From the NCBI GenBank assembly GCA_964624625.1, contig CAZUXW010000003.1, positions 1,728 to 65,727 on the forward strand: a stretch of 64,000 nt of DNA, given 5' to 3'. Under the pieces are notes generated by a model. It saw only the letters and a program-made list of their open reading frames with translations. It searched no databases and was not told the DNA's origin. The position numbers and the translations under genes were made by a program. Of the stretch, positions 2,140-35,232 are shown piece after piece (the first letter of the stretch is position 1; each line of letters opens with the position of its first letter). The stretch is from an uncultured bacterium. GTDB lineage: Bacteria > Oederibacteriota > Muellerivitia > Muellerivitales > Muellerivitaceae.

Positions 2140-2361
2140 GAATCCTTCATCGCCCTCGACCTGATGAAATTCTTCCGCAGAAATTCATGGTTTGGTTAAG
2201 GGCTGAATCCTTTAAACAGCCTGATCAACGGGAAGCATTTTACCCAAAAGGCCCGGAAAAAGAAAAGGCCCTTCTCGTTTCCAAGAAAGGCCTTTGTCAG
2301 GTTCTAGGTGTTAGGTTTCAGGGCCTGGCAAGCCCTGATAGCTTGTGCCTGGCGCCTGATT

Positions 2362-3255: not shown

Positions 3256-3295
3256 AATTTCCTCCTCAGGTTGTCCCCTTGCGGGGGATGAATGA

Positions 3296-5119: not shown

Positions 5120-5383
5120 TGAAAACTTCCTCCTCAAAATTAATAAATAAGTCGCAAAACCGCCGGGGATTTAAGTCCGTCATTTCTCAAGTTCATCCGT
5201 TTTGGCGAGAAAATGACTCGTCCCGCCTTTTGTTGGATTCGGAATGCATCCTCAACCTTGGCAGGAAAAGCATGATACCCGTTGGAGCTTGGAATTCGCA
5301 ACACTTTTGAGGAATAACCAACCTGGAAAATCATTAAAATGAAGGGTATTTCAGCGGGTTGAAGTTCCCCGGAAGCGGTGATT

Positions 5384-10881: not shown

Positions 10882-10997
10882 GGTTAACCTTTTTTATCTT
10901 TTCTTGAGGATTTCTTGCGCCAGTGAGGGGTTAGAAGTTTTCGACTTCCCCCATCCTTGGTTTTTCAACTCCTAACCACTAACTTCTAAATTACTAA

Positions 10998-12530
10998 CTA
11001 TTTTTTCTTTTTGCCTTTTTCCACTTCTTCCTGAAGTCGCCGCTGTTGGGCGGCGAAATCCGTCATCGTGGGCGGCGGCTTGAGCTTTTCAATGACGCTC
11101 ATTTGCAGGGTTTTTTCCATCGGCCTGAGGAAAAAATTGGGGTTAAGGCCGATCCAAAGGACGGCTAGGACGAGGGGTAATAGGGCCAGTCCCTCGGTCC
11201 AGGAAAGGTCAGGGACGGATTGATTTTCTTTCTTTTTCACGGGCCCGAGGAAAACCTTGCCGTAGAGGTTAAAAAGATACCAGGCGGAGAGGACAAACCC
11301 GGTGATGGCGGTCAAGGCCAGCAGGGGTGCGCTCTTATAAACTGCCACCAGGATCAATATCTCGCCGGCGAACCCGGCGAAACCAGGAAGGCCCGCCGCC
11401 GCCAGCATCATCCATAGAAAAGCCGTGGATAGGACTGGAACGACCTTTGCCATTCCGCCGTAGGAATCCATCTCATGGGATTGGCGCCGTTGGTAAAGCA
11501 TGCCCATCAAAAGGAAAAGACCCGCCATGTAAACACCGTGGCTGATCATTTGAAGAACGCCGCCTTGAAGCCCGGTCAAGGAAAAGGTGAAGATGCCCAG
11601 CACGATCATCCCCATGTGGGATAAGGAGGAATAGGCGGCCAAACGCTTAAAGTCCGTTTGGATCGAGGCCATGAGGGCTCCATGCACCACCCCGGCCAGG
11701 GCCAACACCATGATCCAGGGGGCGAAATCCTTGGCCGCGTTGGGAAATAAGGGAACGCAGAATCGCAAGAGGCCATAGGCTCCCAATTTCACCAGGACCG
11801 AGGACAACATGACCGTAGCCCCGGCGGGGGCCTCCGTATAGGCGTCCGGCAGCCATCCGTGAAAGGGAAAGAGTGGAATTTTGATAAAGAAAGCCAGGCC
11901 AAAGGCCAAAAAACACCAGAATTGGACGTCCTCCGGGAAAAAATGCTCGAAGATCTTGGCGTACTCGAAGCTCTTGACCTCATGCGTCACGTAAAGAAGC
12001 GCGACCAGCATCAGGAGGGACCCCAACATCGTAAAAAGGACGAACTTGACCGTGGCCTTGACCCGGTTCGGGCCTCCCCAAACCCCGATCAGGAAAAAAG
12101 CGGGGATCAACATGAGCTCCCAAAAGAGATAGAAAAGGAATATATCCGTCGAGGCCAGGGTCCCCACGACCGAGGATTCCAGAAGAAGAAGGCAGGCGTA
12201 AAAACCCCGGACATTTATTTCAACCGCTTTGAAGCTGGCCAGAAGAACCAAAGGCGTCAGAAAGGTGGTTAAAAGAATCAGCCAAAGGGAGAGGCCGTCG
12301 ATACCCAGGCTGTAATGGATGCCCAGGGAGGGAACGAGCGGGGCCTGTTCCTTGAACTGAAATCCCCCATCCGAGAGGTCGAATCCGTTATAAAGGGCCA
12401 GGGAAAAAACAAAAGTGATGAAGGCGACCATGAGCGACAAGGTCTTCGCGGCCTTAGCCTGGGGAAAAAGGGCGACCAACAGGGCTCCCGATAACGGCAA
12501 ACCGATGAGTATGGATAAAATCACTTTCAA
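10998..12530 (-). CDS. nuoM: NADH-quinone oxidoreductase subunit M
   Basis: 510 aa antiporter-like subunit, with conserved gene order after nuoL. Confidence 0.9.
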   Translation of the reverse strand: MKVILSILIGLPLSGALLVALFPQAKAAKTLSLMVAFITFVFSLALYNGFDLSDGGFQFKEQAPLVPSLGIHYSLGIDGLSLWLILLTTFLTPLVLLASFKAVEINVRGFYACLLLLESSVVGTLASTDIFLFYLFWELMLIPAFFLIGVWGGPNRVKATVKFVLFTMLGSLLMLVALLYVTHEVKSFEYAKIFEHFFPEDVQFWCFLAFGLAFFIKIPLFPFHGWLPDAYTEAPAGATVMLSSVLVKLGAYGLLRFCVPLFPNAAKDFAPWIMVLALAGVVHGALMASIQTDFKRLAAYSSLSHMGMIVLGIFTFSLTGLQGGVLQMISHGVYMAGLFLLMGMLYQRRQSHEMDSYGGMAKVVPVLSTAFLWMMLAAAGLPGFAGFAGEILILVAVYKSAPLLALTAITGFVLSAWYLFNLYGKVFLGPVKKKENQSVPDLSWTEGLALLPLVLAVLWIGLNPNFFLRPMEKTLQMSVIEKLKPPPTMTDFAAQQRRLQEEVEKGKKKK

Positions 12531-12601
12531 ACCCCTTTTTGATTAGGGGCCAGGTTCAAGGTTCCAGCCGGAACCTGAGACCTTGACCCTGAAACCTGCC
12601 C

Positions 12602-14584
12602 TTAATGCAGCATCAAATAAATCAACAGCCCCGCGCCGGCGACCACGTAGGCCAGGTAAACCCGGACCAAACCCACTTGGAGTTTTTTTAATATCCCCGC
12701 CAGGGCGTAGAGGCCCCGGGTCAGGGCCTCGAGGACCCGGTTGATGAGCAGCTGCTCCACCAGTTTGTCCGAAATCCAATAGGCCAACCCCTTCACCCAT
12801 TTCACCACGGTGAGTTCATAAAGCTCGTCCACGTAATATTTTTGCTCGATGACTTTTTTCCCGCCGGGAATAAGCTTGAATATCCTCTGGCTCAAAACGT
12901 GTTTCAATCCATAAACATACCAAGCCACTCCCGCGCCCAATCCCGCCACGAGAAAGGACATCAGCATCAATAGGGGCTCCATTTTCTTGGAGACGCCGTC
13001 CGCTTCCAGGGTCGAGAGATGGAAGAGAGGGTCCAAAAACTTCCCCAGCGCGTTGCCTCCCCCGATGGCCTCGGGCATGCCGATCCAGCCGGAAACCAGC
13101 GAGCCGATCCCCAAAACAAACAAGGGAATGGTCATCCAACGGGGTGATTCGTGCAAATGCCCGAAGACTTCCTTGTCGCCCCGGTACTCGCCGAAAAAAA
13201 CCAAAACGACCAGGCGGGTCATGTAATAGGCCGTGAGAAAGGCCGTCGCCAGGGCGGTAAAATAAAGAAGCTCCGGCAAAAGCGGAAAGACTGCGTTGGG
13301 GGTGGCTAGGGCGCGCCAAAGGATCTCGTCCTTGCTGTTGAATCCCCCGCAAAGGGGCAATATCCCGGAAATGGCCAGCCATCCCAAAAGAAAGGAAAGG
13401 CTGGTAAGGGGGATATGCTTTAAAAGGCCTCCCATTTTGCGGATGTCCTGCTCCCCCTTCATGGCGTGGATCACCGATCCGGCCCCCAGGAAAAGACAGG
13501 CTTTAAAAAATCCATGGGTAATCAAGTGAAAGATTCCGGCACTGTAGGCGCTGACGCCAACCCCCAGGAACATAAAGCCCAGCTGGGAAATCGTGGAGTA
13601 GGCCAGGACTTTCTTGATGTCGTTTTGCGTCACCGCGATCGTGGCCGCCAATAGCGCGGTCAAGACCCCGATGACCGCCACCACCATGGAAGCCCAAGGC
13701 GCGAGCACGAAAAGGAAATGCAGGCGCGCCACCAGGTAAACGCCCGCCGTGACCATGGTCGCGGCATGAATGAGGGCGGATACAGGCGTGGGGCCCGCCA
13801 TGGCGTCAGGAAGCCAAACATAAAGGGGAATCTGGGCGGACTTCCCGGCTGCCCCAAAAAAGAAGCAGAGGCAAACGATGGTGGCCGAGAGATTGCTAAA
13901 CACCATTTTGTGGGCTTGAAGATCGTTGAAATTAAAGGTTCCGGCCAGGGCGAAGACCATGAGCAGGCCCGCCAGGAACCCGGCGTCCCCGATTCGGTTG
14001 ACGATGATGGCTTTTTTACCAGCGTTGGCCTTGGCCTCGTCCTCAAACCAAAAACCGATGAGGAGGTAGGAACAAAAGCCGACCCCCTCCCATCCCAGGA
14101 ATAAAACCAGCAGGTTTTGGGCCATGATCAGAACCAACATGGAAAACAAAAACAGATTCAAATAGGTGAAGTAGCGGCCAAATCCAGGGTCATCCTTCAT
14201 ATAACCAATTGAATATAGGTGGATCAAGCTTGAGACAAATGTGATGAAAACCACCATCACCAGGGAGAGGGAGTCCAATTGCAGGTTCATTTTAACCTGG
14301 AACGAACCCGCGTCCATCCAATCAAAAAGATCCTCCACCAAAATACTGTTGTCGGGCAATCCGTTGAAATGAAGAAAGGTAAACCAGGCCGCGATAAAGG
14401 ATGCGATCGCGGCTCCGCAGGCGACCGTGGCGTAAAGGGCCCGGGGAAAGGCAGGCTTCCCGCGGGAAGCGGTGAGCGTCAATAATCCGTTGACGGCCGC
14501 CCCGATCAGGGGGGCCACGGCGATCAACCAGATCCAATCAAAGTTGATCAGGGCTATGTTTTGAAAATGTTCCAATTTCAGCAT
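12602..14584 (-). CDS. nuoL: NADH-quinone oxidoreductase subunit L
   Basis: 660 aa antiporter-like subunit with a long C-terminal extension. GAGG RBS 5 nt before the ATG. Confidence 0.9.
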   Translation of the reverse strand: MLKLEHFQNIALINFDWIWLIAVAPLIGAAVNGLLTLTASRGKPAFPRALYATVACGAAIASFIAAWFTFLHFNGLPDNSILVEDLFDWMDAGSFQVKMNLQLDSLSLVMVVFITFVSSLIHLYSIGYMKDDPGFGRYFTYLNLFLFSMLVLIMAQNLLVLFLGWEGVGFCSYLLIGFWFEDEAKANAGKKAIIVNRIGDAGFLAGLLMVFALAGTFNFNDLQAHKMVFSNLSATIVCLCFFFGAAGKSAQIPLYVWLPDAMAGPTPVSALIHAATMVTAGVYLVARLHFLFVLAPWASMVVAVIGVLTALLAATIAVTQNDIKKVLAYSTISQLGFMFLGVGVSAYSAGIFHLITHGFFKACLFLGAGSVIHAMKGEQDIRKMGGLLKHIPLTSLSFLLGWLAISGILPLCGGFNSKDEILWRALATPNAVFPLLPELLYFTALATAFLTAYYMTRLVVLVFFGEYRGDKEVFGHLHESPRWMTIPLFVLGIGSLVSGWIGMPEAIGGGNALGKFLDPLFHLSTLEADGVSKKMEPLLMLMSFLVAGLGAGVAWYVYGLKHVLSQRIFKLIPGGKKVIEQKYYVDELYELTVVKWVKGLAYWISDKLVEQLLINRVLEALTRGLYALAGILKKLQVGLVRVYLAYVVAGAGLLIYLMLH

Positions 14585-14609
14585 GCAAACCTCAAACTTA
14601 AATTTTGAA

Positions 14610-14716
14610 CCACAGAGTGAACAGAGTTACACAGAGTAAGGCAATACAAGGCATTCTGAACGTTAGTGCTTAATAAAATTCTTGTCTTACTCTGCGTAAC
14701 TCTGTTCACTCCGTGG
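14610..14716. repeat. 107-bp dyad: 31-bp inverted-repeat arms around a 45-bp loop, between nuoK and nuoL
   Basis: Arms: ccacagagtgaacagagttacacagagtaag (14610-14640) and cttactctgcgtaactctgttcactccgtgg (14686-14716). The two arm differences are G-U wobbles in the minus-strand (nuo mRNA-sense) RNA and C-A mismatches in the other sense. Confidence 0.7.
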
Positions 14717-14723
14717 TTGATGA

Positions 14724-15041
14724 TTATCCTTTAAGACTTTTGAACAAATCCAAATCCACCGTTTCTTTTATACGGAAAAGCGCGATCACGATAGCCAGTC
14801 CCACGCAGGCTTCCGCCGCCGCCACCGCCACCACGAACAAAACGAACACATGGCCCGTCAAATCCCCGTTCACTCGGGAAAAAGTAACGAAGGTAAGGTT
14901 GACCGCGTTCAACATCAGTTCCAAGGACATGAGGGAAACGAATAAATTCCTGCGGGTCAAGACTCCCGCGATCCCAATGGCGAACAAAATGGCCGAGAGA
15001 ACGAGATAATGGGTCGGCGAAACAGGGTAAAGCAAATCCAT
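14724..15041 (-). CDS. nuoK: NADH-quinone oxidoreductase subunit K
   Basis: 105 aa with three TM segments, [16 protein letters not shown] motif. Confidence 0.9.
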
Positions 15042-15094
15042 TTCAAATCATCCTTTTTGAACTAATTTACGAATTCCGCATCCCGAAAGGTTAA

Positions 15095-15130
15095 TTGGTC
15101 CTTTCAAAGCTTCCGCTTTGAAAGGACCAA
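15095..15130. repeat. perfect 15/16-bp stem hairpin that overlaps the 3' end of nuoJ
   Basis: TTGGTCCTTTCAAAGC ttccg CTTTGAAAGGACCAA. The last nuoJ codons (..LVLSKRKL*) are encoded by the loop and the distal arm; the proximal arm is immediately 3' of the stop. Confidence 0.7.
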
Positions 15131-15619
15131 GGCCCCCACTACCGCCGCCAAGAGGAGCAGGGAAAGCATTTCGAACGGAAATAAATAATCCGAAAAAACC
15201 TTCATTCCGACAGCTCCAATGCTTCCAAAATCCTCCGGAATGTCGGCGAACTTCCATTGGCCCGAAGGAAAAACCACCAAAAACAGCGGGCCCAGCGCGC
15301 CTCCCAATACCAATAACAAAACCGCCGGGATCATAACGGCCCGGGCCTTTAAGGGCCTCAAGTCCTCCGGAGCCAGGTTCAATAGCATGATGACGAAAAT
15401 CACCAACACCATAATGCCGCCGGCATAAACCAGGATCTGGATGATCGCCGCCAGGGAAGCGGATAACGTGGCGTAGAGGGCGGCCAAAGCCACAAAGGCC
15501 CCCACCATGGACAGCGCGGACCCAATGGGGTTGGTGCGGGTGATCACCAATAACCCGAAGCCCAACAACAGGGCGGCTAGGATGTAAAAGACGGCGGCTT
15601 CCAACAAGTGATGCTCCAA
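15104..15619 (-). CDS. nuoJ: NADH-quinone oxidoreductase subunit J
   Basis: 171 aa hydrophobic, in conserved position between nuoI and nuoK. Confidence 0.88.
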   Translation of the reverse strand: MEHHLLEAAVFYILAALLLGFGLLVITRTNPIGSALSMVGAFVALAALYATLSASLAAIIQILVYAGGIMVLVIFVIMLLNLAPEDLRPLKARAVMIPAVLLLVLGGALGPLFLVVFPSGQWKFADIPEDFGSIGAVGMKVFSDYLFPFEMLSLLLLAAVVGALVLSKRKL

Positions 15620-15744
15620 GGATGGATTAGTAGTCAGGAATCAGGAATTTTGGAAGATTCTCATTTGAATTTCGCAAATGAAAATCACCTTATTTCCCTT
15701 CCAAACTACGACTGAATGCCTCTTTCCTAATTTCCAATTACGAA

Positions 15745-15775
15745 CGCCCCATGCCAAGCCTATGGCTTGGCATGG
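15745..15775. repeat. perfect 14-bp stem hairpin that overlaps the 3' end of nuoI
   Basis: CCCCATGCCAAGCC tat GGCTTGGCATGGGG. The nuoI stop codon lies in the loop and the final codons (HGPHAKP) are in one arm. Confidence 0.7.
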
Positions 15776-16305
15776 GGCCCGTGCGTCCAAATCACCGGCC
15801 GCGGCGGATTATATTCCGGCACGATATCTTTATTGTCATGGTCCATCAAAAATTCCTTGCCATAAACCAAGCTGTCCCTGGTGTAGCCCGCGATGGCGAT
15901 TTCCGGCACATCCATCCGGATGGCGTCCAAGGGGCAGGCGTCCACGCAAAAACCGCAGAAAACACAGCGAAGCATGTCGATCTCGAATTTTTCCGGCAGT
16001 TTCTCCACGTTCGGGTCGGCTGATTCAGCCGCCTTAATATGGATGCACTCTGCCGGGCAGGCGGTGGCGCACAACATGCAGGCCGTACAACGGGGCGACT
16101 CATCCTCCCTCTTCATCAGGCGGTGGCGTCCCCGGGTGGTCGGCGGCAGGGCCTTCTTTTGTTCCGGAAAAAAAATTACCGGCATCCCCTTGGGATTCAT
16201 TAAATTCCTCAAGACATGACCCATCGTCACGAGGAGCCCCTTGAGGACTTCGCCCAGGTAGAGCTTTTGGGAACCTGTCATTTCAGGCCGCTCAACAATT
16301 TTCAT
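15760..16305 (-). CDS. nuoI: NADH-quinone oxidoreductase subunit I (2 x [4Fe-4S])
   Basis: CTACMLCATACP and CVFCGFCVDACP motifs. Start reassigned to the internal ATG (MKIVERPE..., 16305) because the ORF-finder start (16374) would overlap the nuoH 3' end. Confidence 0.88.
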   Translation of the reverse strand: MKIVERPEMTGSQKLYLGEVLKGLLVTMGHVLRNLMNPKGMPVIFFPEQKKALPPTTRGRHRLMKREDESPRCTACMLCATACPAECIHIKAAESADPNVEKLPEKFEIDMLRCVFCGFCVDACPLDAIRMDVPEIAIAGYTRDSLVYGKEFLMDHDNKDIVPEYNPPRPVIWTHGPHAKP

Positions 16306-16345
16306 AAAACCCCTATTTTTACCTTTTCTGCGTCTCTGCGGCAAA

Positions 16346-17656
16346 TCATTGTTTTTGGACCAAAATAAAAACACCCGTCACCAGCAAATTCAGCAGCGCC
16401 AAAGGCAGCATCAGCTTCCATCCCAGGTTCATGAGCTGGTCGTAACGGAACCGGGGCATGGTCCAACGCACCCACACGAAAAGCCAGCAGAAAAAGAGGA
16501 CTTTGATGAGAAGGCAAATCATTTGCAGCAAGGCCGTTAATACACCAGGGGCCCAAACCGGCAAGGCCACAAAATGGGAAAAGACCAGCAGGCCCAGTGA
16601 CATACCGGCCCCGCCGAAACCCACGGCTGAGAATATGAAAGGTTCCCAGCGTTTCATCCCAGTATGCAGAACTTTTTGATCCAAGGCGCTTAAATAGAGG
16701 ACCCTTCCCAGGAAACCGCCGGCCAAGATCCCCCCCCCGCACAACAACAGGAGGGTCAATTGGGGTTTTTGAAGAAGAACTTGAGTCGGGGCAAAGGGAA
16801 CCTGGTAGCCGCCCAAAAATAAGGTTGAAATCAAAAAGGCCGCCACCACCATGTTGGAGTACTCGGCCATGAAGAATAAGGCGAACTTCACGCTGGAATA
16901 TTCGATATGGTAACCAGCCACTAATTCGGATTCACCCTCGGCCAAGTCAAAGGGATTGCGGTTGGTCTCGGCGAAAGAGGCCACCAGGAAAAGAAAGAAG
17001 CCCACCGGTTGGAGAAAGATCCCCCAATGGGGGAAGGGAAGGGTGTGGCCCGCCAGGGTCAAAAGCCCTCCTTGGGTCTCCACAATCGCGTCCACTTTCA
17101 CGCCTTGGAACACCATCAAAAGCCCCACCACGGACAGGCCCATGGATAATTCATAGGAAATCATCTGGGCGGAGGAACGAAGCCCTCCCAAGAGGGAAAA
17201 TTTGTTGTTCGAGGCCCAGCCCGCCAGGATGACCCCAAAGACCCCCATGCTGGTAATCGAAAGAATATAGAGGACCCCCACGCTAAAGTTCGCGGCCTGG
17301 AACCGGAGGCTGTGGCCGGCGACTTCCATGGGCGCGGCCAGGGGGATGATCAACAGCGGCAGCAGCGAAACCGTCATGGACCAAAAGGGCGCCAGCCAAT
17401 AATAAAAACCATTGGCGTGGGAGGGCGTGATGTTTTCCTTCATCAGGAGTTTGATGACATCCGCGAAGTTATGGACCATTCCAAATAAGCGGACGCCAAA
17501 AATTTCCGCCCGGTTGGGCCCGATTCGGTCCTGAATGATGGCGCTTCCCTTCCGCTCCAGCCAGATGAAAAATGGGATGAATTGGAGCGGTGTCAACCAC
17601 ATGACCACCGTCATGACCGCGATATTAATTAGGGTAAAAAGGTGGTTATCCAACAT
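16346..17656 (-). CDS. nuoH: NADH-quinone oxidoreductase subunit H, with a ~80-90 aa extra hydrophobic segment
   Basis: 436 aa against the usual 320-350. Conserved EYSSVKFALFFMAEYSNM... region, followed by an additional hydrophobic segment (..LLLLCGGGILAGGFLGRVLYL..VGFGGAGMSLGLLVF..) before the C-terminal helices. Confidence 0.85.
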   Translation of the reverse strand: MLDNHLFTLINIAVMTVVMWLTPLQFIPFFIWLERKGSAIIQDRIGPNRAEIFGVRLFGMVHNFADVIKLLMKENITPSHANGFYYWLAPFWSMTVSLLPLLIIPLAAPMEVAGHSLRFQAANFSVGVLYILSITSMGVFGVILAGWASNNKFSLLGGLRSSAQMISYELSMGLSVVGLLMVFQGVKVDAIVETQGGLLTLAGHTLPFPHWGIFLQPVGFFLFLVASFAETNRNPFDLAEGESELVAGYHIEYSSVKFALFFMAEYSNMVVAAFLISTLFLGGYQVPFAPTQVLLQKPQLTLLLLCGGGILAGGFLGRVLYLSALDQKVLHTGMKRWEPFIFSAVGFGGAGMSLGLLVFSHFVALPVWAPGVLTALLQMICLLIKVLFFCWLFVWVRWTMPRFRYDQLMNLGWKLMLPLALLNLLVTGVFILVQKQ

Positions 17657-17791
17657 GAACCTCCAACATTTTCACCCCAGGTCCCTTGGGGACCATCAAG
17701 ACAGGATTAAAGACGGTTGATATTAAACCAAGGACTTTCTTAACGGTGCCCTCCGGGGTCCCAAAGGGACCTGTGGTAACTGGTTTGCGTT

Positions 17792-19417
17792 TCATTCTTT
17801 CGCTTTCCCCAATACGTTCGGTTGGGATTTGATGCCCTGGAAAGGCTCAGCCGCGGCCGGCGGAAGATCCAATACCTTCCCCGCGGAAGGTATCGAACTA
17901 AAAGTTAACCCGTTCAAAAGCGGGACTTCCTTGGCCATGGCGTTGAACACGGCGGGAGTGTCCTCAAACTCAAACCCCTCTACCTTCAAGGCTTTCGCCA
18001 AACGGCAAATCCACATGGAAGCTTCCACCACATCCGGATTCTCAGGCTCAATGGCCTGCTTGAATTTTTGCAGGCGGCTGGTGCCGTTGACGAAAGTTCC
18101 GTTCTTTTCCGTGAAGGGACGGACGGGAAAAAGCATGGATCCCAGCTCCGCGACTTTCGTTTGATGGACCGACAGCACGATCAAGGCGTTCACTTTTCCA
18201 TAAACCTTCTTGGCCCTTTCCTCGTCCTGGCCGAAAGGATTGTTGTGCATCATGATGACGACCTTAATGGCGCCCTTTTCAATTTTGGCGAGCAGTTCTT
18301 TTCCCTCGGGATCAATCCCCAACAGTTTCAACCCTTGCGCGTTAGGGGTCTTGTCCGGCAGTTTAAGGATAGGGTCCCCGGCCCCCGGTTTGCCCCAGAA
18401 AGGAGCGGCCAGGTTTTTGACGTTGAATCTTTTCTCGAAAAGTTTCTTCAAAAGATAGTTGTCCTCCAGGGCCGCGGCAGGGGACGCGATTCCGGCCACT
18501 TCCTCCCGGGACAGGGCCTCGAGTATGTTCGCCAAGGAATCGATCCCCTTGGCCAGCGTGCTGATTCCGTGGCCTAGGCGAACTTCCGTGACCCGGTTGG
18601 TTTGGTAATAGTCGTAGGAAAACCTTCCCTCATCGCAGATCCAGGTCTTATTGAGCTCCGAGTTGTCCCTCGGCATGAAGCGGAAAACCTTTCCCTTATT
18701 ATGCTCCACCGTGATGTTGCATCCCCTCGCGCATCCAGGGCAAATGGAATCGGTTTTTTTGAGGAACCAGACCCTTTGCTTAAATCGGAATTCCTTGAGG
18801 GTCAAGGCGCCCACCGGACAAATGTCGGTCACATTGCCCGAGTAGGCGTTATCCAAGCGGCGGTCCGGGAAGGTGGTAATGGTGGAGGCATGGCCTCGAT
18901 TCACAATGCCCAGCTCGGACGTTTTCGGGACCTCATCCACGAAACGGATGCAGCGGGTGCAAAGCACGCAGCGTTCCTGGTCCAGGATAATATGCTCCCC
19001 GATATCCTCCGCCTTGCCGCCCTTGAAATCCCGGGGCACGCCGCGCCGGAAATCATAGAGGCCGTATTCCATATATTGGTTCTGGAGCTTGCACTCCCCC
19101 GCCTTGTCACAGACCGGGCAATCCAGCGGATGGTCTAATAAAAGGAATTCCAGGGCCGACTTTTGGGCGGCCTTGGCCTTAGGGGTTAGGGTATGGACCA
19201 CCATTCCCTCGGAAACCTTGGTATTGCAGCCAACGGTCAACATCGGACCCTTGGGCCCTTCGATCTCCACCATGCAGGTCCGGCAATTGCCGGCCACCGG
19301 CAGGTAGCGCTGGTAGCAAAAGTGCTCGAGGGGAATATGGTTGGACAAAGCCGCTTCCAGAACGTTGGTTCCGTCGGGCACTTCCATTTGTTTTCCATCG
19401 ATGGTGATTTTCGCCAT
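17792..19417 (-). CDS. nuoG: NADH-quinone oxidoreductase subunit G (short form)
   Basis: N-terminus MAKITIDGKQMEVPDGTNVLEAA..CYQRYLPVAGNCRTCMVEI is the 2Fe-2S ferredoxin fold, followed by a 4Fe-4S Cys-rich region. Start taken at ATG 19417. Confidence 0.88.
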   Translation of the reverse strand: MAKITIDGKQMEVPDGTNVLEAALSNHIPLEHFCYQRYLPVAGNCRTCMVEIEGPKGPMLTVGCNTKVSEGMVVHTLTPKAKAAQKSALEFLLLDHPLDCPVCDKAGECKLQNQYMEYGLYDFRRGVPRDFKGGKAEDIGEHIILDQERCVLCTRCIRFVDEVPKTSELGIVNRGHASTITTFPDRRLDNAYSGNVTDICPVGALTLKEFRFKQRVWFLKKTDSICPGCARGCNITVEHNKGKVFRFMPRDNSELNKTWICDEGRFSYDYYQTNRVTEVRLGHGISTLAKGIDSLANILEALSREEVAGIASPAAALEDNYLLKKLFEKRFNVKNLAAPFWGKPGAGDPILKLPDKTPNAQGLKLLGIDPEGKELLAKIEKGAIKVVIMMHNNPFGQDEERAKKVYGKVNALIVLSVHQTKVAELGSMLFPVRPFTEKNGTFVNGTSRLQKFKQAIEPENPDVVEASMWICRLAKALKVEGFEFEDTPAVFNAMAKEVPLLNGLTFSSIPSAGKVLDLPPAAAEPFQGIKSQPNVLGKAKE

Positions 19418-19440
19418 AAATCCTAAAACCTCATTTTCAC

Positions 19441-19525
19441 CACCAAGGCACCAAGGGGCCAAGAAAGGCTTTTAATTCCGCCCTTTCCGGTAAATGATTT
19501 TCTTGGTGTCTTGGTGTCTTGGTGG
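19441..19525. repeat. inverted tandem 8-mer repeats in the nuoF-nuoG spacer
   Basis: 2 x CACCAAGG (19441-19456) face 3 x TCTTGGTG (19501-19524). Nested GGTAAATGATTT / GGTAAATCATTG dyad. The nuoF stop codon is at 19536-19538. Confidence 0.6.
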
Positions 19526-19535
19526 TAAATCATTG

Positions 19536-20816
19536 TTAAGACACCTTTTCCGGAACCGAAACCGCCGTCGGCTTGCAGTACTTTTCAAAATCCTCCCGGA
19601 ACTTTTTGATGAAGCTCCGCACCGGGAAGGCCAGGGCGGAGGAGAAGACGCAGATAGTCTTGCCTTCCATGTTGTCCGCGATTTCCAGCATCAGGTCCAA
19701 TTCCTTGGCCGCGGCTTCCCCCGCGAGGATTTTCTTGAGGATCCTGTCCTCCCAAGCGCTCCCTTCCCGGCAGGGCGTGCATTGGCCGCAGGACTCGTCC
19801 CGGTAGAAATGGGTCAGGTTCTTGAGGATCTTGGCCATGTCCGTATGCTCGTTCATGATGATGGCGCAGCCCGTGCCAAACATGGTCTTGTGGTCCCTCA
19901 TGCTCTCGTAGGAGAGGGTCAAGTCCTCGCACTCCTTCGCGGTCAATACCGGACAGGAGGATCCGCCGGGAATGACGGCCTTGAGCTTGCCGCCCTTAAC
20001 GCCCTTGCCGTACTTCTCGATAAATTCCATCATGGGAAGGCCGAAGGGCATTTCCCAAAAGCCGGTTTGGTGGACGTGGCCCGAAAGCCCGAACACATGG
20101 GTACCGGGAGATTCCTTCGTGCCGATAGCGGCGTAGGCCGCGGCGCCATTTTCAATAATCCAGGGAACCGAGGACAGCGTCTTCACGTTGTTCACAATGG
20201 TGGGGCAGCCAAAGGCCCCCACGATGGCCGGAAAGGGCGGCTTGATGCGGGGCTGCCCCTTTTTGCCCTCGAGTGATTCCAGGAGCCCCGTCTCTTCCCC
20301 GCAGATGTAGGCTCCCGCTCCCCGGTGGACATAAACTTCCAAATCAAAACCTGAACCCTGGATATTTTTTCCGAGATAGCCGGCTTTTTTAGCGTCCTCA
20401 ATGGCGGCGTTCAAACGGTTGATCTGCTCCAAGAATTCGCCCCGGACGTATATATAGGAAGTGTGGCATCCAATGGCGTAACTGGCGCAGATGATTCCTT
20501 CGAGCAGCAAATGAGGGTCGTAGAGCATCATGAAGCGGTCGGTGAAGGTTCCCGGTTCACCCTCGTCGGCGTTCACCACCAGGTAAACAGGTTTTCCCGT
20601 GTTTTGTGGGACAAATGACCATTTCATGCCAGCCGGAAAACCCGCCCCGCCACGGCCCTTCAAACCCGAGGACTTCACTTCCTCGATTACCTCGGCGGGT
20701 TTTTTGGCGAAAAGATTTTTTAAGGACGCGTATCCACCCGTCTCCAGGTAGACCTTGAGTTGGTGGCCGTCCTTGGTTTCAAACCGCCTGGTGAGTTGAG
20801 GTTGAAATTCGGCCAT
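19536..20816 (-). CDS. nuoF: NADH-quinone oxidoreductase subunit F (NADH/FMN/4Fe-4S)
   Basis: GRGGAGFPAGMKW FMN/NADH motif and C-terminal CGQCTPCREG 4Fe-4S motif. Confidence 0.92.
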   Translation of the reverse strand: MAEFQPQLTRRFETKDGHQLKVYLETGGYASLKNLFAKKPAEVIEEVKSSGLKGRGGAGFPAGMKWSFVPQNTGKPVYLVVNADEGEPGTFTDRFMMLYDPHLLLEGIICASYAIGCHTSYIYVRGEFLEQINRLNAAIEDAKKAGYLGKNIQGSGFDLEVYVHRGAGAYICGEETGLLESLEGKKGQPRIKPPFPAIVGAFGCPTIVNNVKTLSSVPWIIENGAAAYAAIGTKESPGTHVFGLSGHVHQTGFWEMPFGLPMMEFIEKYGKGVKGGKLKAVIPGGSSCPVLTAKECEDLTLSYESMRDHKTMFGTGCAIIMNEHTDMAKILKNLTHFYRDESCGQCTPCREGSAWEDRILKKILAGEAAAKELDLMLEIADNMEGKTICVFSSALAFPVRSFIKKFREDFEKYCKPTAVSVPEKVS

Positions 20817-21296
20817 TTATTTCTTCCTCAATTCTTCGATCAACTTCTCGGTGCTTTGGGGGGTCAGGTTCTCGTGATAGTCGTCGTTCACCTGCATGCA
20901 GGGCCCCGTGTGGCAGGAGGCCAGGCATTCGACCGGTTGATAACTGAATTTCCCGTCGGGCGTTGTCTCGCCTGGTTTTAAATCGAGCTTCTTCTCGATC
21001 ACCTTTTTGATTTCTTCCGAGCCGTTTAAGAGGCAGGAAATGGTTTGGCACACCTGAAGATGGTACTGTCCGGGCTTTTTCTTTTGATACATGGTGTAGA
21101 ACTCGGCAACTTCCATCACCTGCATGGGGGAACAGCCCACCAGTTCGGACACAGCCACCATGGCGTCGGTGGAGATCCAGCCGAATTCCCTTTGGGCCAG
21201 CCAAAGGGCCGGAAGGAGCGCGGCCCGGCGCAAGGGATAGCGCTTGGCAATAGCCTCGAACTCTTCCAAGGTTTCTTTTTTGAACTGTACGGCCAT
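20817..21296 (-). CDS. nuoE: NADH-quinone oxidoreductase subunit E (2Fe-2S)
   Basis: 159 aa. CQTISC...ECLASCHTGPCMQVN thioredoxin-like ferredoxin motif. Directly abuts nuoF. Confidence 0.9.
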   Translation of the reverse strand: MAVQFKKETLEEFEAIAKRYPLRRAALLPALWLAQREFGWISTDAMVAVSELVGCSPMQVMEVAEFYTMYQKKKPGQYHLQVCQTISCLLNGSEEIKKVIEKKLDLKPGETTPDGKFSYQPVECLASCHTGPCMQVNDDYHENLTPQSTEKLIEELRKK

Positions 21297-21389
21297 TTCG
21301 AATTCCCTTTTCCCAAGTTAGAAGTTAGGAGCGAGAGGTTGGGAGTTTTGAACTTCTCACCGCCAACTCCTCACTCCTAATTGATTTTT

Positions 21390-22634
21390 TCAACGGTCCA
21401 GTTCGCCCGCAATGATGTTGATCGACCCCAAATTCGCAACCGCGTCGGCGATCATCGTCCCCTCGATCATGGTGTGGTAAGCCGCGAAATTCATGAAACA
21501 GGGGGGCCGGCACTTGATACGGTAGGGATTCTTCGATCCGTCCGAGACAATCGTAAAACCCAATTCCCCATTCGCGGCCTCGGTGGCGTCATAGACCCGC
21601 CCGGGCTCGGGACAAATGCCGTGCATGATGATCTTGAAGTGATTCATCAACCCTTCGATGTTTCCGTAGGTCTGCTGTTTGGGAGGAAGCGCCACCCTCT
21701 TGTCGTCCGTCATGACCGGACCGTTGGGTAATTTCCCCAGGGCCTGCTCGATGATGTGGATGGATTCCTCGATCTCAAGAAAACGTATGAAAATGCGGTC
21801 GAAAATATCGCCCCGGCTTCCCACAGGAACGTCGAATTTAAAGTCCTCATAATGGTAATAGGGCTCGGCTTTGCGCAGGTCGTACTCAACCCCGCTGGCC
21901 CGAAGCGTCGGCCCCGTCCAGCCGTAGGAAATCGCCTTCTCTTTCGAGATAACGCAAATATCCTTGGTGCGGTCGAGGAAAATCCGGTTTTTGGTAACCA
22001 GTTTCTGAACATCCAAAACACCTTTTCGTATTTCTTTCAATACCGCCGTGACTTCCGCGCCGAAAGCCGGATAAACATCGCGCGAAAGGCCCCCGATGCG
22101 GGTATAGCTGGACGTCAAGCGCGCTCCGCAAAGCTTTTCGAGAATGTTGTAAACCTTTTCCCGCACGTTGAAGGAATACCAGAAATTGGTAAGGGCGCCG
22201 ATATCCACGAGGTTCGCGCCGGCGCAAACCAAGTGGTCAATGATGCGGTTGAGCTCGCTGGTGATGACCCGGATGTAAATCGCCCTTTCCGGAACCTGAA
22301 TATTCATCATGCGCTCCACGGCCTTGCAGAAGCCCACGTTGTTCATGATGGCGGATACGTAATTAAGCCGGTCCGTGTAGGGAATGCATTGCTGGAAGGT
22401 ATGGACCTCGCAGTCCTTCTCAAAACCACGGTGCAGGTAGCCGATCTCGGTGACCGCCGCCACGATGGTTTCGCCGTCCAGGGCGCAAAGCGCCCGCAAG
22501 GTGCCGTGGGTCGCCGGGTGGCTGGGTCCCAGGTTCACCATGACCAGGTCCTTTTTCTCAAGGGATTGAACCGAGTTCAATCCCCGGGAAGAGGACTCGA
22601 CAGGTAGTAAAGTTTTCGTGTCGATCGCATTCAT
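21390..22634 (-). CDS. nuoD: NADH-quinone oxidoreductase subunit D
   Basis: 414 aa; N-terminus ..MVNLGPSHPATHGTLR and C-terminus ..AGELDR are typical of NuoD/49-kDa subunits. Confidence 0.92.
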   Translation of the reverse strand: MNAIDTKTLLPVESSSRGLNSVQSLEKKDLVMVNLGPSHPATHGTLRALCALDGETIVAAVTEIGYLHRGFEKDCEVHTFQQCIPYTDRLNYVSAIMNNVGFCKAVERMMNIQVPERAIYIRVITSELNRIIDHLVCAGANLVDIGALTNFWYSFNVREKVYNILEKLCGARLTSSYTRIGGLSRDVYPAFGAEVTAVLKEIRKGVLDVQKLVTKNRIFLDRTKDICVISKEKAISYGWTGPTLRASGVEYDLRKAEPYYHYEDFKFDVPVGSRGDIFDRIFIRFLEIEESIHIIEQALGKLPNGPVMTDDKRVALPPKQQTYGNIEGLMNHFKIIMHGICPEPGRVYDATEAANGELGFTIVSDGSKNPYRIKCRPPCFMNFAAYHTMIEGTMIADAVANLGSINIIAGELDR

Positions 22635-22686
22635 CGTTTTTCCTCTTTAATAACGCCGACTTTCAATGACAAATGGTTAACCCGCG

Positions 22687-23229
22687 TCAAACGTAGCCCT
22701 TTTCCTTTAAGCGGACTTCCATCTCGTCCATCAGCGACTCATTCATGGAAAGCGCCTGGCGGCGGGTGATGGGATAGTCTTTCCGCAGGGGATGTCCCAC
22801 GAACTCATGGTGGTTTAAAAGCCGCTTCAAGTTGGGATGGCCGGAGAAACGGATACCCATCTGGTCGAAGGCCTCCCTTTCCAGCCAATCAGCGTTGGCG
22901 TAAAGGGTGGTGAGGCTCGGCACCACCGGCCCGTCCTCGGGGGCGGTCAGGGAGAGTTGAATTCGGTGGCCATGGCCCAGGGATTTCAAATGATAAATCA
23001 CGCCGAACCTCTCACCGGTCCATCCGGAAAAGGCCGAATAGTCCACAGAGACGATATCCACGAGCATGTCGAACTGAAATTCCGGGTCATCCCGCAGTAT
23101 TTTCACCATGCCGGCGAGCTGGGCGCGGTCCACCTGGACCTCCAGGGCGCCAAAACGATCCGCCGAACCAAGAATGGCTTGGGGGGTTTTTTCTTTCAAT
23201 TTTTCCAATAGCGCCGAGAATTCCATCAA
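22687..23229 (-). CDS. nuoC: NADH-quinone oxidoreductase subunit C
   Basis: 180 aa, 30-kDa subunit family, in conserved position. Confidence 0.85.
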   Translation of the reverse strand: MMEFSALLEKLKEKTPQAILGSADRFGALEVQVDRAQLAGMVKILRDDPEFQFDMLVDIVSVDYSAFSGWTGERFGVIYHLKSLGHGHRIQLSLTAPEDGPVVPSLTTLYANADWLEREAFDQMGIRFSGHPNLKRLLNHHEFVGHPLRKDYPITRRQALSMNESLMDEMEVRLKEKGYV

Positions 23230-23349
23230 AACCTCCCACCTTTCACCCCATGCCGCCTAAGGCAGATCGCAAAGTTGCGGTTCGAAAAAATATTTTCCAT
23301 TTCCACCCAAAGGCCTTTGTCCAGCTGTGACTCCGTGGTGAAAAGGTTG

Positions 23350-23855
23350 TTAATAATCAAACTTCGGTTCCTTTGCCATGAACTGCGCCGCCGGCGTCGT
23401 TCCCGGATTCTCGATCTTGTGCTGGAGCTTCATCACCGCCGTCAAAATAGCTTCCGGCCTGGGGGGGCATCCGGAAATGTACACGTCCACCGGGATGATC
23501 TGGTCGATGCCCTGCACCGTGCAATAGTTGTTATAAAACCCGCCCGAGGAGGCGCAGACGCCCATCGAGATCACCCACTTGGGCTCGCACATCTGCTCGT
23601 AAATTTGTTTCAGGATGGGGGCCTGCTTGAAGGTGACGGTCCCCGCGACCAACAAAAGGTCCGATTGCCGGGGGGAGAAACGCACCAACTCGGCTCCGAA
23701 CCGGGAAATATCAAACACCGAGGAAACCACCCCCATGAACTCGATCGCGCAGCAGGCGGTTCCGAAGGGCATGGGCCAGAGGGAGTTCTTTTGCCCCCAG
23801 GCGATGACAGCGTCCTTGCGGGTGGTGATGGCCGGAAAAGTTTCTACTCCCATTC
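23350..23855 (-). CDS. nuoB: NADH-quinone oxidoreductase subunit B
   Basis: Start at the internal ATG (MGVETFP...). Conserved [17 protein letters not shown] and GCPPRPEA motifs. The longer ORF-finder version would overlap nuoA. Confidence 0.9.
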
Positions 23856-24221
23856 CAAGGCCCCCCTTTTCCAGAGGTAAAACCAACCAAAGGCCAGGAC
23901 GCCAAGGAACCCCAACATTGAAAGGAACCCGCCCCAAGCCATTTTTTGGAACAGCACCGCCCAGGGAAAGAGAAATACGATCTCGACGTCGAATACCAGG
24001 AAGCACATGGCCACCAGGTAAAATTTCACGTTGAAACGGTGGCGGGCGTCCCCCGTAAGGGCGCTGGATTGGATTCCGCATTCGTAAGGGGAAAGCTTCG
24101 TTTCGTTGTCCTTGCGGGGTCCTAGGGCCTTGGATAACAACAGCATGGCCGCCGGAACCGCCATGGCGAGGAAAAGGGAAAGAACGATGGGAAGTAGGTT
24201 TTCAATCAGCTCGAAATTCAC
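23844..24221 (-). CDS. nuoA: NADH-quinone oxidoreductase subunit A
   Basis: Start taken at GTG 24221 ([13 protein letters not shown]...), with GGAGG 6 nt upstream. Conserved KLSPYECG motif. The upstream ORF-finder extension has no family counterpart. Confidence 0.85.
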
Positions 24222-24332
24222 GCTTAGCCTCCGGTCAACGCTTAAGCTTTCACCCGGAAGTAAGGCTGGTTTGGCGGGGGGCAATGGGTGAAATTAGAGC
24301 GAATTATAAGGAGTTTTAAACCATTTGGTCAA

Positions 24333-24348
24333 TGTGAAATATTTCACA
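24333..24348. promoter_or_regulatory. perfect palindrome TGTGAAATATTTCACA (CRP/FNR-family consensus TGTGA-N6-TCACA), site 1 upstream of nuoA
   Basis: Exact 16-bp palindrome, ~120 bp upstream of the nuoA GTG. Confidence 0.6.
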
Positions 24349-24414
24349 AACTATTCATTTTTAGGCCTCAAATTCCCGAATTTTGAGGCCTATCCGTCCT
24401 TTTCATAAAATAGA

Positions 24415-24430
24415 TGTGAAATATTTCACA
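24415..24430. promoter_or_regulatory. second identical TGTGAAATATTTCACA palindrome, site 2
   Basis: Identical 16-mer 82 bp from site 1 (centre to centre). The hairpin AGGCCTCAAA ttcccgaa TTTTGAGGCCT (24363-24391) lies between them. Confidence 0.6.
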
Positions 24431-24470
24431 AGCCCTGGTAGGCCGCCTGGATCCCCCACAAGGATTAGGC

Positions 24471-24498
24471 AAAAAAAAGGCCCGGGGGCTCCCGGGCC
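24471..24498 (-). terminator. rho-independent terminator of the upstream OMP gene
   Basis: Minus-strand RNA: GGCCCGGG agcc CCCGGGCC followed by U8 (plus-strand A8 at 24471-24478). Confidence 0.7.
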
Positions 24499-24528
24499 TT
24501 GGTGCATTTTTAACGTCCTGACTCCCTA

Positions 24529-25101
24529 TTACATAAACGAAAAGCCGACCAAAAAGGTCAGAGTGCCATTTTGGATATTCACGTTTTGCGCCACATTGTC
24601 CAGGCCCAATTCATAACGCCCGCTGACCAAAAATTTGTCGATATCCACTTCCACCCCGGCCACCAGGCCCACATCCGAAGTGGCAATGTTGGAAATGTTG
24701 CCGCCAGAGGCGTCTTTGGCGACCACATTCCAAGCAAAGGAAGGGCCGAATAAAATTCCGGGATTAACCACCGGCGAACCCAACGAAAGCTTCAAAAGCA
24801 CCGGAATTTCAATGTAATCCAACTGGGTGGAGGTGCTGGTCCCCGATATCTGGTTTCCCTTTTGCTCATAAAGAACCTCGGGACGGATGGCGAAGCTGTT
24901 CCCGAAATTGAGGCTCAAGAACCCGCCTCCCACCAGACCCAGTTTGGAATCGTTCGCCCCGCTGATGGTGCTGACATCCGCCCCGAGGAAATTCGAGAAG
25001 TTCGCCCCGGCTTCCAATCCCAAACTGAAATTCTGGGCGGCAGCCCGGCCAAGGGACAGCCCCGCCAGCAACAAACTAAACAGCATTATCTTGATTTTCA
25101 T
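24529..25101 (-). CDS. outer-membrane beta-barrel protein (OmpA-like / opacity-porin-type barrel domain)
   Basis: Signal peptide MKIKIMLFSLLLAGLSLGRAAAQ, alternating amphipathic strands, aromatic C-terminus ..LTFLVGFSFM. AAGGAGAG RBS upstream. Confidence 0.7.
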   Translation of the reverse strand: MKIKIMLFSLLLAGLSLGRAAAQNFSLGLEAGANFSNFLGADVSTISGANDSKLGLVGGGFLSLNFGNSFAIRPEVLYEQKGNQISGTSTSTQLDYIEIPVLLKLSLGSPVVNPGILFGPSFAWNVVAKDASGGNISNIATSDVGLVAGVEVDIDKFLVSGRYELGLDNVAQNVNIQNGTLTFLVGFSFM

Positions 25102-33351: not shown

Positions 33352-35232
33352 CTACTTCACTTCAACCCTGTAGACGGGAATGGTTTTTTTCGCCCATTTC
33401 ATCTCGAAATCCAATTTTTGCGCAGGCAATCGATTTTCTCCCAGGAAATTTTTAACTTCCGCGTCATCGGCCACGCTTTGGGTGAAGCCGATCTGCCCGG
33501 CGTTGGAGGTGGATTGGATTTTGGCGCTTAGATTCACGGTGTTCCCGAAATAATCGATGTTGCTGTTCAGGTTCACCGCCAGGCAGGAGCCGCTGTTTAA
33601 GGTGACCCGGAGCCTCAGGCGCGTTTCGGGGTTATGGCCGTTGAAATACTTCTGCATCTCCACCGCCGCCTTCATGGCGTCCAGGGGATGGGCAAAGGCC
33701 GCCATGACCGCGTCGCCGATGGTCTTCACCACCGCCCCATCGTGCTTGACGATGGACTCGTAGGCCTTCAGGAAATGCTGGCGCACCTCGGCGAAAGCGA
33801 CCGTATCCCCTTCCAGCTCGTAAAACTGGGTGGAACCCACCAGGTCCGTGAAAAGGATGGTTTGGACCCCCACTTCCAATTTGATGTCGGCGGACAGGGC
33901 CTGCTCCGAGAAGAGATCCCGAAATCCCTGGAACGAGAATAAATCCACCGGCCGCAAGGTGTCCTGGTCCGTTTTATTTTCTTCCAAAATAAAGGTGCGC
34001 GCTTCGGCCGAGGTGTTCTGGAGAACGACCGTTGGAAAATGGACGCTCTGGAAATTTTCCTGGGCCGCGATATCCTTCCACAAGACCTGGTTCCCCGCGA
34101 CATCATCGGTAATATCCAGCAGGTTATAGACTTCCTTCCCCTGGATCCTCAGGCGGTACCGGCCTTGGCTGAGCAGGGTTCCCAGGGACAATTCGTCCTT
34201 GGGCCTTATGGTTTTTTGCATCTTGATATGGGGCTTGGTGCCCGGCTCCGCGGCGCAAAAAAGTTTCTTCTCGATCGGCCGGATGGAGGGGTTCACGTGA
34301 AAGGTGACTTCCAACACGTTGAAGGAAGTGGCGTCAAAATCGATCTTGCAAACCTCGCAGTTCCCTCTTTTCGGCAGGTCTCCCAGGTTTCTCATCTCGT
34401 TGCGCACGCCCCGGCAATGGGGGCAAAGCACGTCCCAGGTTAAATTGAACAAACCCAGGCGGGTGGCCGTGAGGAAGGCCAGCAATAGCTCCTTTTCCCG
34501 GACATTCCATTCCCGGGCCAAGGGCTTCACCCGGATCCGGTAAAGGGTGTCGTCGGAAGCCGTTTCCACGTAGCGGACCATCTGGTCGGCCAGGGCCGGC
34601 AAGATTCCCGCCTTCACCAAGTCCTGCCTAATCCGATTCAACTTTTCCTTGACCGCGGGTGAAAACTTAAAGGCGGGCCCCACCGGGATGGGTGGCGCTT
34701 GCCCTTGGATGGCTTTCACGATCTCCCCCAGCGCCTTGACATAACCCTGCTTGATTTGGATCAGGCCGATATTTATCAGCAGCCGGGCCTTGAGGCCGCG
34801 GGGGATCCAGGATAAATAAACCGTCAGGCGGGTTTGGCCCGGCTTTATTTCCTCAAACAAGTAACGGGCCTTCATGTAATAGGGCAGCCCCTCGCTGTAA
34901 ACCCTGGCGTGGCTGAACTCCCTGCCATATTCCCATTCCCATGGCACTTCTTCCCAGACCATGCGGGTCCCGACATTCATGGCGAAACCTTGCAGGCGCC
35001 CGTTCTTCTCCGTGAACTTCATCTCCCCCAGCCCCACCCTTTTATTGAAGGTGGAGAGGTCGGCCAAGTAGGGCCAAAGCTTTTCCGCGGCGACGGGCAG
35101 GTCGAATTTCCAGAAGAAGTGCATGGGTTTGCCCTTGGCGAGCCAGTCGGAGGGCCAAGGATATTTTTCCAGGAACTGGTCGAGGGTCATCCCCTGGTTT
35201 GTTTCGAAACTTTTAGTTGAGGACATCGACAC
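33352..35232 (-). CDS. class III adenylate/guanylate cyclase with a large N-terminal sensory region
   Basis: C-terminal ~190 aa: ILFTDLVGSTQFYE...KTIGDAVMAAF...YFGNTVNLSAKIQS (cyclase homology domain). N-terminal ~430 aa unassigned; includes CPHCRGVRNEMRNLGDLPKRGNCEVCKIDF (CxxC-N16-CxxC). Confidence 0.75.
   Translation of the reverse strand: MSMSSTKSFETNQGMTLDQFLEKYPWPSDWLAKGKPMHFFWKFDLPVAAEKLWPYLADLSTFNKRVGLGEMKFTEKNGRLQGFAMNVGTRMVWEEVPWEWEYGREFSHARVYSEGLPYYMKARYLFEEIKPGQTRLTVYLSWIPRGLKARLLINIGLIQIKQGYVKALGEIVKAIQGQAPPIPVGPAFKFSPAVKEKLNRIRQDLVKAGILPALADQMVRYVETASDDTLYRIRVKPLAREWNVREKELLLAFLTATRLGLFNLTWDVLCPHCRGVRNEMRNLGDLPKRGNCEVCKIDFDATSFNVLEVTFHVNPSIRPIEKKLFCAAEPGTKPHIKMQKTIRPKDELSLGTLLSQGRYRLRIQGKEVYNLLDITDDVAGNQVLWKDIAAQENFQSVHFPTVVLQNTSAEARTFILEENKTDQDTLRPVDLFSFQGFRDLFSEQALSADIKLEVGVQTILFTDLVGSTQFYELEGDTVAFAEVRQHFLKAYESIVKHDGAVVKTIGDAVMAAFAHPLDAMKAAVEMQKYFNGHNPETRLRLRVTLNSGSCLAVNLNSNIDYFGNTVNLSAKIQSTSNAGQIGFTQSVADDAEVKNFLGENRLPAQKLDFEMKWAKKTIPVYRVEVK

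Follow-up and report, generated by a model that had tools for sequence, protein, structure and literature searches.

A conserved pair of palindromes at the complex I promoter of an uncultured bacterium, probable operators of a Rex-type repressor

The DNA considered here is a stretch of 64,000 nucleotides from an uncultured bacterium (assembly GCA_964624625.1, contig CAZUXW010000003.1, positions 1,728 to 65,727), referred to as the window. It carries the nuoA-N operon for complex I (NADH:quinone oxidoreductase) and, upstream of nuoA, two identical palindromes. Based on the comparison of related sequences, these palindromes are selected protein-binding sites which are located on a real promoter and control nuo. 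They probably serve as operators at which a dimeric Rex-type repressor, sensing the NADH/NAD+ ratio, would control the nuoA-N promoter; the regulator itself is one that we infer from its sites. The elements on which this reading is built are the following:

9451-24221, minus strand: nuoA-N operon, delineated by open reading frames and per-gene Pfam families, encoding the 14-subunit NADH:quinone oxidoreductase including the NADH-oxidising NuoE/F/G module
24303-24308, minus strand: -10 hexamer TATAAT from the promoter scan, separated from the -35 hexamer by an 18-bp spacer
24327-24332, minus strand: -35 hexamer TTGACC from the promoter scan
24332-24349, minus strand: proximal operator, an exact palindrome sharing its final T with the start of the -35 hexamer; predicted centre at about -44.5
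24414-24431, minus strand: distal operator, the identical 18-mer 82 bp further upstream; predicted centre at about -126.5

A preliminary description of this DNA had reported two exact copies of the pattern TGTGA-N6-TCACA 82 bp apart, and these were recovered at 24333-24348 and 24415-24430 as the only exact matches within the window, both reading TGTGAAATATTTCACA. The number expected from dinucleotide-preserving shuffles is 0.03, and none of 100 shuffled sequences contained two or more matches, in agreement with the earlier view that a chance origin of the pair is unlikely. When up to three mismatches were allowed, 20 matches were obtained compared to 20.9 expected, i.e., no excess over chance. 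The full repeated unit comprises 18 nt (ATGTGAAATATTTCACAA) with a start-to-start distance of 82 nt, and on the nuoA strand both palindromes read TTGTGAAATATTTCACAT. The G+C content of the window is approximately 54% (0.50-0.58 per 2 kb) and not the 58% that had been given for the genome.

The gene nuoA (Pfam family Oxidored_q4, E = 6e-37) starts with a GTG codon at 24221 on the minus strand and is preceded by a near-consensus promoter of the sigma70 type, TTGACC-18-TATAAT, matching the consensus in 11 of 12 positions. The transcription start is predicted at approximately 24296, about 7 nt after the -10 hexamer and to within about 2 nt. Relative to this predicted start, the proximal site is centred at -43.5 to -44.5 and the distal one at about -126.5, and the proximal 18-mer adjoins the -35 hexamer with an overlap of one nucleotide. 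The palindromes had previously been placed in the nuoA leader; they are located upstream of the predicted promoter and accordingly represent promoter DNA that is not transcribed.

In order to obtain a phylogenetic footprint, species-representative genomes were scanned for NuoB. The closest relatives are metagenome-assembled genomes labelled candidate division FCPU426, and the exact NuoD protein was found on metagenome contigs of several ENA samples and one JGI sample. Six contigs of near-identical strains (L001-L006) do not differ in the intergenic region and thus carry no footprint information. Four further loci (L007, L008, L009 and L021), with NuoB identities of 80-93% to the window organism, all possess two TGTGAA-N4-TTCACA sites upstream of nuoA at a distance of 82-83 bp, in an aligned intergenic region featuring a mean column identity of 61% overall among the FCPU426-type species. 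At least 12 more nuoA promoter loci of the FCPU426 type (NuoA identity 78-89%), 10 of them non-identical, were obtained by scanning metagenomes for the paired pattern. The resulting footprint set consists of 15 non-identical promoters with 30 sites and nine distinct 18-mers, originating from five species representatives and 10 metagenome contigs (besides the window: L007, L008, L009, L021, L218, L232, L235, L238, L250, L255, L261, L268, L269 and L286). Paired sites at a spacing of 82-83 bp were present in all 15 promoters, with the following conservation of operator positions:

Position 1: T in 29 of 30 sites
Positions 2-7 and 11-17: invariant in 30 of 30 sites
Position 8: A in 29 of 30 sites
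Positions 9 and 10 (central): vary freely

Pairwise identity across the 15 promoters amounts to 96% for the operators compared to 45% for the DNA between them. The promoter elements are likewise retained in the relatives, the -35 hexamer as TTGa.c with an invariant TTG, and the -10 hexamer as TATAAT or TACAAT with a spacer of 17-18 bp in 14 of 15 cases. In one relative (L009) the upstream genes are different and include no gnd or outer-membrane protein homologue, and the paired sites still occur at nuoA. Conservation in 15 related promoters, fixed spacing and position on the promoter indicate that the palindromes are functional protein-binding sites.

The same footprint argues that they are neither a repeat element nor a chance duplication. 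An explanation of this kind would regard the identical copies flanking a perfect hairpin as the termini of a small mobile element or repeat, or as accidental, with the hairpin serving as a terminator or resembling a repetitive extragenic palindromic (REP) element; the same palindrome does form tandem arrays on unrelated metagenome and viral contigs. It is, however, already contradicted by the comparative data and is most improbable. That the motif might be a common repeat had been named beforehand as an outcome that would speak against regulation, and only two copies were detected within 72 kb (the window and 8 kb past its right end), both at nuoA; the 12-20 kb loci of the relatives contain no further ones. 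Moreover, the orthologous position was kept in 15 genomes while the interior diverged to 45% identity, which is the opposite of a recent insertion, and the hairpin is unconserved and lacks a T-run on the nuo strand. Dispersed elements such as miniature inverted-repeat transposable elements (MITEs) or REP sequences were rejected, as the only two copies in this DNA are both at nuoA and their position is shared by the 15 genomes.

Tandem arrays of TGTGAA-N4-TTCACA elsewhere comprise 14 copies within 1.5 kb on one metagenome contig (L278), eight copies mostly about 105-125 bp apart on another (L263), and four copies each with a period of 29 bp on a metagenome contig (L216) and a viral contig (L144). 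A further metagenome contig (L252) likewise carries such arrays, and on one viral contig (L137) pairs are located at both contig ends.

The assignment to a Rex-type regulator starts from the operator sequence. The generalised Rex operator is given as TTGTGAANNNNTTCACAA, i.e., TTGTGAA-N4-TTCACAA, in PMC5317091, which quotes Ravcheev et al. 2012, and the Rex box of Staphylococcus aureus is TTGTGAAW4TTCACAA (PMC2883068). Compared to this consensus, TTGTGAAATATTTCACAT agrees in 17 of 18 positions and has an all-A/T centre; its half-sites are identical to those of the S. aureus box, whose regulon includes fermentation and nitrate respiration genes and not complex I. Properties of Rex operators that are found here are an 18-bp inverted repeat, an overlap with the predicted promoter and a target in NADH re-oxidation and respiration.

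The closest parallel is the nuoA1-N1 operon of Streptomyces (S. coelicolor and S. avermitilis), where the target is also complex I and the operator TTGTGACCTGCTTCACAT is the same kind of 18-bp inverted repeat. In S. avermitilis, Rex footprints the nuoA1 promoter from -42 to -16 on this sequence and thereby covers the -35 region, deletion of rex derepresses nuoA1, and NADH reduces DNA binding by Rex (PMC5355995). In both systems the operator is located at or over the -35 hexamer and repression is relieved by NADH, in FCPU426 by inference. Since the target operon encodes the NADH-oxidising NuoEFG, an NADH-sensing input would be physiologically sensible. Target, motif, operator position and physiological logic all coincide with the known Rex-nuo system. 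The two differ in that the single operator of Streptomyces spans the interval from -35 to -10, whereas the FCPU426 promoters possess two operators 82-83 bp apart, of which the proximal one abuts the -35 hexamer on its upstream side, and phased A/T tracts in between. Furthermore, the hosts are an actinomycete on the one hand and an uncultured bacterium with a presumed rex gene on the other.

The near-consensus, conserved -35 and -10 hexamers make the nuo promoter look activator-independent, and an operator touching the -35 hexamer of this predicted promoter argues for a repressor arrangement. With a Rex footprint of approximately 27-29 bp (PMC5355995), a repressor bound there would occlude RNA polymerase. 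A Rex-type repressor on the proximal operator abutting the -35 hexamer probably controls the complex I promoter and would leave it when NADH accumulates, so that more complex I would be produced and NADH re-oxidised.

The preliminary description had attributed the sites to a regulator of the CRP family responding to cAMP or redox state. The regulatory sites at nuo stand by virtue of their conservation, spacing and position, and the 'redox-type' part of the proposal is probably right in spirit, whereas the CRP/cAMP assignment received no specific support. The pattern TGTGA-N6-TCACA cannot by itself separate the two families, because every perfect Rex box matches it. What separates them is the constraint extending beyond the CRP pentamer: A6/A7 and T10/T11, which together with the 5' T are the additional Rex-specific positions, do not change across the 30 sites, with the two central bases variable.

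Control by a CRP/FNR-family regulator responding to cAMP or another ligand, which would activate nuo through a tandem arrangement similar to class III promoters or else repress it, is considered unlikely but has several points in its favour. The palindromes match TGTGA-N6-TCACA perfectly, CRP-family proteins with an R-E recognition helix are widespread, and two sites per promoter recall class III promoters of Escherichia coli. Moreover, one metagenome locus (L221) with a similar paired site carries a CRP-family gene nearby, and the window encodes a class III cyclase-domain protein at a distance of 9 kb from the palindromes. CRP activator sites in E. coli are centred at -41.5, -61.5, -71.5 and so on, usually in combination with a weak -35 hexamer. 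The predicted centres of -43.5/-44.5 and about -126.5, in contrast, are neither class I nor class II positions, a strong and conserved -35/-10 pair is already present, and the half-site constraint spans seven bases (TGTGAAA) and includes positions 6-7 and 10-11. Among the metagenome loci listed, rex was found beside paired sites five times and a crp-family gene once. The cyclase, which had been put forward as a link to cAMP, does exist: the protein encoded at 33352-35232 (minus strand) has 626 aa and contains DUF5939 as well as a cyclase domain of class III (Guanylate_cyc, E = 7e-17). Such cyclases are common, so that its proximity is not evidence for CRP; nothing in the analysis ties it to the sites, and the related loci stop short of the cyclase position. 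The FNR-type site TTGAT-N4-ATCAA was rejected, since the palindromes do not match it.

Genes encoding the regulator were searched by Pfam analysis of 30 open reading frames of the window, by Pfam labels on the contig extensions and by tblastn against the window and all loci. No crp/fnr-family gene (cNMP_binding plus HTH_Crp_2) was found in the 72 kb or in the related loci, which represent about 2% of a genome. With the Bacillus subtilis Rex sequence (identical to PDB 2VT2) as query, nothing below E = 0.25 was obtained in the window or the loci, and the same applies to approximate queries for Thermus thermophilus Rex, E. coli CRP and E. coli FNR. When a profile built from two Rex sequences was searched against a database, only Rex proteins of the Bacillus type and none from FCPU426 were retrieved.

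Several observations weigh against the Rex assignment. Neither the 72 kb nor the relatives' 12-20 kb loci, again about 2% of a genome, yielded a rex gene. The core fits the CRP-type consensus TGTGA-N6-TCACA equally well. The outer base at the 3' end is mostly T, where the Rex consensus has A; the S. avermitilis operator TTGTGACCTGCTTCACAT likewise ends in CACAT. Furthermore, the nuo transcription start is a prediction. In locus L221, the CRP-family gene (1574-2263) lies 520 nt away from the paired site (968-1056), which makes this locus a candidate example of Rex-like sites being used by a CRP-type protein. Rex is not known to loop between distant operators, so that any function given to the distal site is speculative. 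The L221 pair is located directly upstream of a gene encoding a GPR1/SatP-like protein, and the regulator features cNMP_binding and HTH_Crp_2 domains with the helix RETVTTQ.

A dimeric regulator of another or so far undescribed family that reads TGTGAAA-N2-TTTCACA is improbable. It would accommodate a host from an uncultured candidate phylum whose cognate regulator is deduced from the palindromes, as well as a 7-2-7 pattern and a fixed 83-bp pairing that are not standard in described Rex operators. Such a regulator is, however, unnecessary, as motif, target gene and position all match a known system (PMC5355995), and identical sequences occur upstream of rex genes. Operators of the LacI type were also rejected, because the centre of the palindromes is variable and without CG. 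A conserved central CG is needed in LacI-type operators.

The rex-associated sites originate from the metagenome scan for paired TGTGAA-N4-TTCACA, from which 80 loci were listed; counts refer to this sample and not to a census. A rex gene adjoins the paired sites in five of the 80 loci listed; in four of them the pair is located 22-45 bp upstream of rex, and in the fifth (L210) only the 3' end of rex is present, just upstream of its paired site. All three rex loci that were checked encode the Rex domain pair PF06971 and PF02629. The operators of two rex loci (L227 and L254) include the 17-mer TTGTGAAATATTTCACA, identical to that of the window, and those of L211 include the core TGTGAAATCTTTCACA, the most frequent distal site of the FCPU426 relatives. 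The autoregulated rex loci (L211, L219 and L227/L254) thus resemble nuo in their upstream pairs of TGTGAA-N4-TTCACA sites, but differ in the spacing of 74-78 bp (82-83 bp at nuo), in that the downstream gene is rex itself, and in their unrelated organisms. In Caldithrix abyssi, a single Rex site is located 38 bp upstream of the rex gene Cabys_3675 (PMC5317091). Comparison of the rex-bearing metagenome contigs with FCPU426 DNA by tblastx revealed no shared genes, and these rex genes are therefore not of the FCPU426 lineage.

Enrichment of the motif was analysed in nuoB loci of 80 species representatives (1.24 Mb), allowing at most one mismatch to TGTGA-N6-TCACA and defining the 600 nt upstream of nuoA (3.7% of bases) as the target zone. 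Considering all loci, 15 of 29 matches are located in this zone (binomial P about 2e-14); outside FCPU426 it contains seven of 20 (binomial P about 5e-6), the corresponding genomes being Krumholzibacteriia-like or belonging to Gemmatimonadota and Planctomycetota. Position 6 is A in all 15 matches upstream of nuoA versus three of 14 elsewhere. Based on this enrichment and on the A at position 6, a site of the TTGTGAA type upstream of complex I genes recurs across phyla. In two loci assigned to Arcobacter/Aliarcobacter (L036 and L058), the near-palindrome TTTGTnATAGATTTCACAAG occupies one and the same offset, approximately 2.5 kb upstream of nuoB, and a third one (L068) has the variant TTTGTGATACATTTTACAAG at this offset.

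The DNA between the two operators has features of its own:

24350-24413: inter-operator spacer with A-tracts and T-tracts every 10-11 bp approximately
24362-24392: perfect palindrome (11+9+11), TAGGCCTCAAA..TTTGAGGCCTA, with arms at 24362-24372 and 24382-24392 that are 100% complementary

Tracts at about -55, -45, -36, -26 and -14 from the proximal site recur in the relatives despite the pairwise identity of 45%. The AA/TT periodicity has its maximum at 10.5-11 bp; its z of approximately 15 compared to shuffled sequences is inflated by the relatedness of the sequences. Judged from these patterns, the spacer is probably intrinsically bent DNA. The operator spacing corresponds to about 7.9 helical turns, placing both sites on about the same helical face.

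The perfect hairpin between the palindromes noted in the preliminary description was confirmed, with arms measured at 11 nt each instead of a 10-bp stem and 9 nt in between. As single-stranded DNA it has a folding energy of -11.1 kcal/mol (z = -3.8), but it is species-specific and not conserved in the relatives; it probably elaborates on the conserved pair of A- and T-tracts and is not an element of its own. A function as intrinsic terminator was rejected, given that the terminator scan was silent, the nuo strand lacks a T-run (AAAAATG follows the stem) and the structure is unconserved. A binding site for IHF was likewise rejected since the consensus is not matched.

A distal operator across DNA bent by A/T tracts might raise occupancy of the proximal site via cooperative binding or a small loop. 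The more specific idea of a micro-loop or wrap on bent DNA, in which two Rex dimers or some other partner clamp the complex I promoter, would be an architecture undescribed for Rex and is put forward tentatively, as rather unlikely. The O1-O3 loop of lac and the OE-OI loop of gal similarly combine two operators tens of base pairs apart, on approximately the same helical face and with bendable DNA, and provide a functional analogy only. The lac and gal looping repressors are tetramers or need HU, whereas Rex is described as a dimer that is not known to form such loops. Simple pairs among the metagenome loci listed (L210-L289) have spacings clustering at about 73-79 and 85-88 bp, approximately one helical turn apart, in a sample that is small and non-independent.

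The remaining features of the region concern the boundaries of the nuo transcript:

24222-24296, minus strand: predicted 5' untranslated region of nuoA
24232-24228, minus strand: Shine-Dalgarno sequence GGAGG of nuoA
24469-24500, minus strand: intrinsic terminator of the upstream beta-barrel gene from the terminator scan, a 10-bp G+C-rich stem (24500-24477) followed by T8

The gene upstream of the nuo promoter (24529-25101, minus strand) is co-directional and encodes an outer-membrane beta-barrel protein with OMP_b-brl domains. Its terminator insulates the nuo promoter: because this gene closes in a strong intrinsic terminator, the 250-bp interval harbouring the palindromes is a self-contained nuo promoter region. 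A match to the Rfam family Phe_leader over the terminator is sub-threshold (27 bits versus a gathering score of 55) and was rejected as chance; a scan of 24100-24600 against Rfam yielded no family at threshold.

Within the nuoA mRNA, a possible 5' stem is formed by ATTTCACCC (24294-24286) pairing with GGGTGAAA (24255-24248) on the minus strand, i.e., the predicted 5' end AUUUCACCC is able to form base pairs with GGGUGAAA, which follows after about 35 nt. In approximately half of the relatives the sequence of the arms differs while complementarity is kept, as for UCCGCUCCU/AGGAGCGG in L218. From the predicted pairing, such a stem-loop may have a stabilising role. Folding energies of the 5' untranslated region were not significant, and RNAalifold gave no consensus structure from an alignment of poor quality.

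The interval 478-5137 (minus strand), about 4 kb past the nuoN end, harbours genes for a 2-oxoacid:ferredoxin oxidoreductase (a fused POR/POR_N subunit, a TPP-binding beta subunit and a 4Fe-4S ferredoxin) and for a pyridine-nucleotide-disulphide oxidoreductase. Ferredoxin- and NAD(P)H-linked redox enzymes are thus encoded close to complex I.

The results provide a concrete regulatory link for FCPU426, an uncultured candidate phylum common in soils and peat, in which complex I expression is apparently coupled directly to the sensing of a cellular signal, most likely the NADH/NAD+ ratio. Nothing in these findings overturns current understanding; Rex-type control of complex I is a known kind of control that would here occur in a new lineage, whereas the architecture of paired operators with a bent spacer is unusual. 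For readers of sequences they also imply a caution, as a perfect 'CRP consensus' may be a Rex box, the Rex motif being a subset of TGTGA-N6-TCACA. Owing to its fixed spacing and phased A/T tracts, this promoter is a clean natural setting in which cooperation of Rex-type repressors at a distance could be studied. If the proposed clamping of the promoter is true, and considering the nuoA-upstream sites of other phyla, direct feedback of NADH on complex I would be widespread in uncultured Gram-negative phyla.

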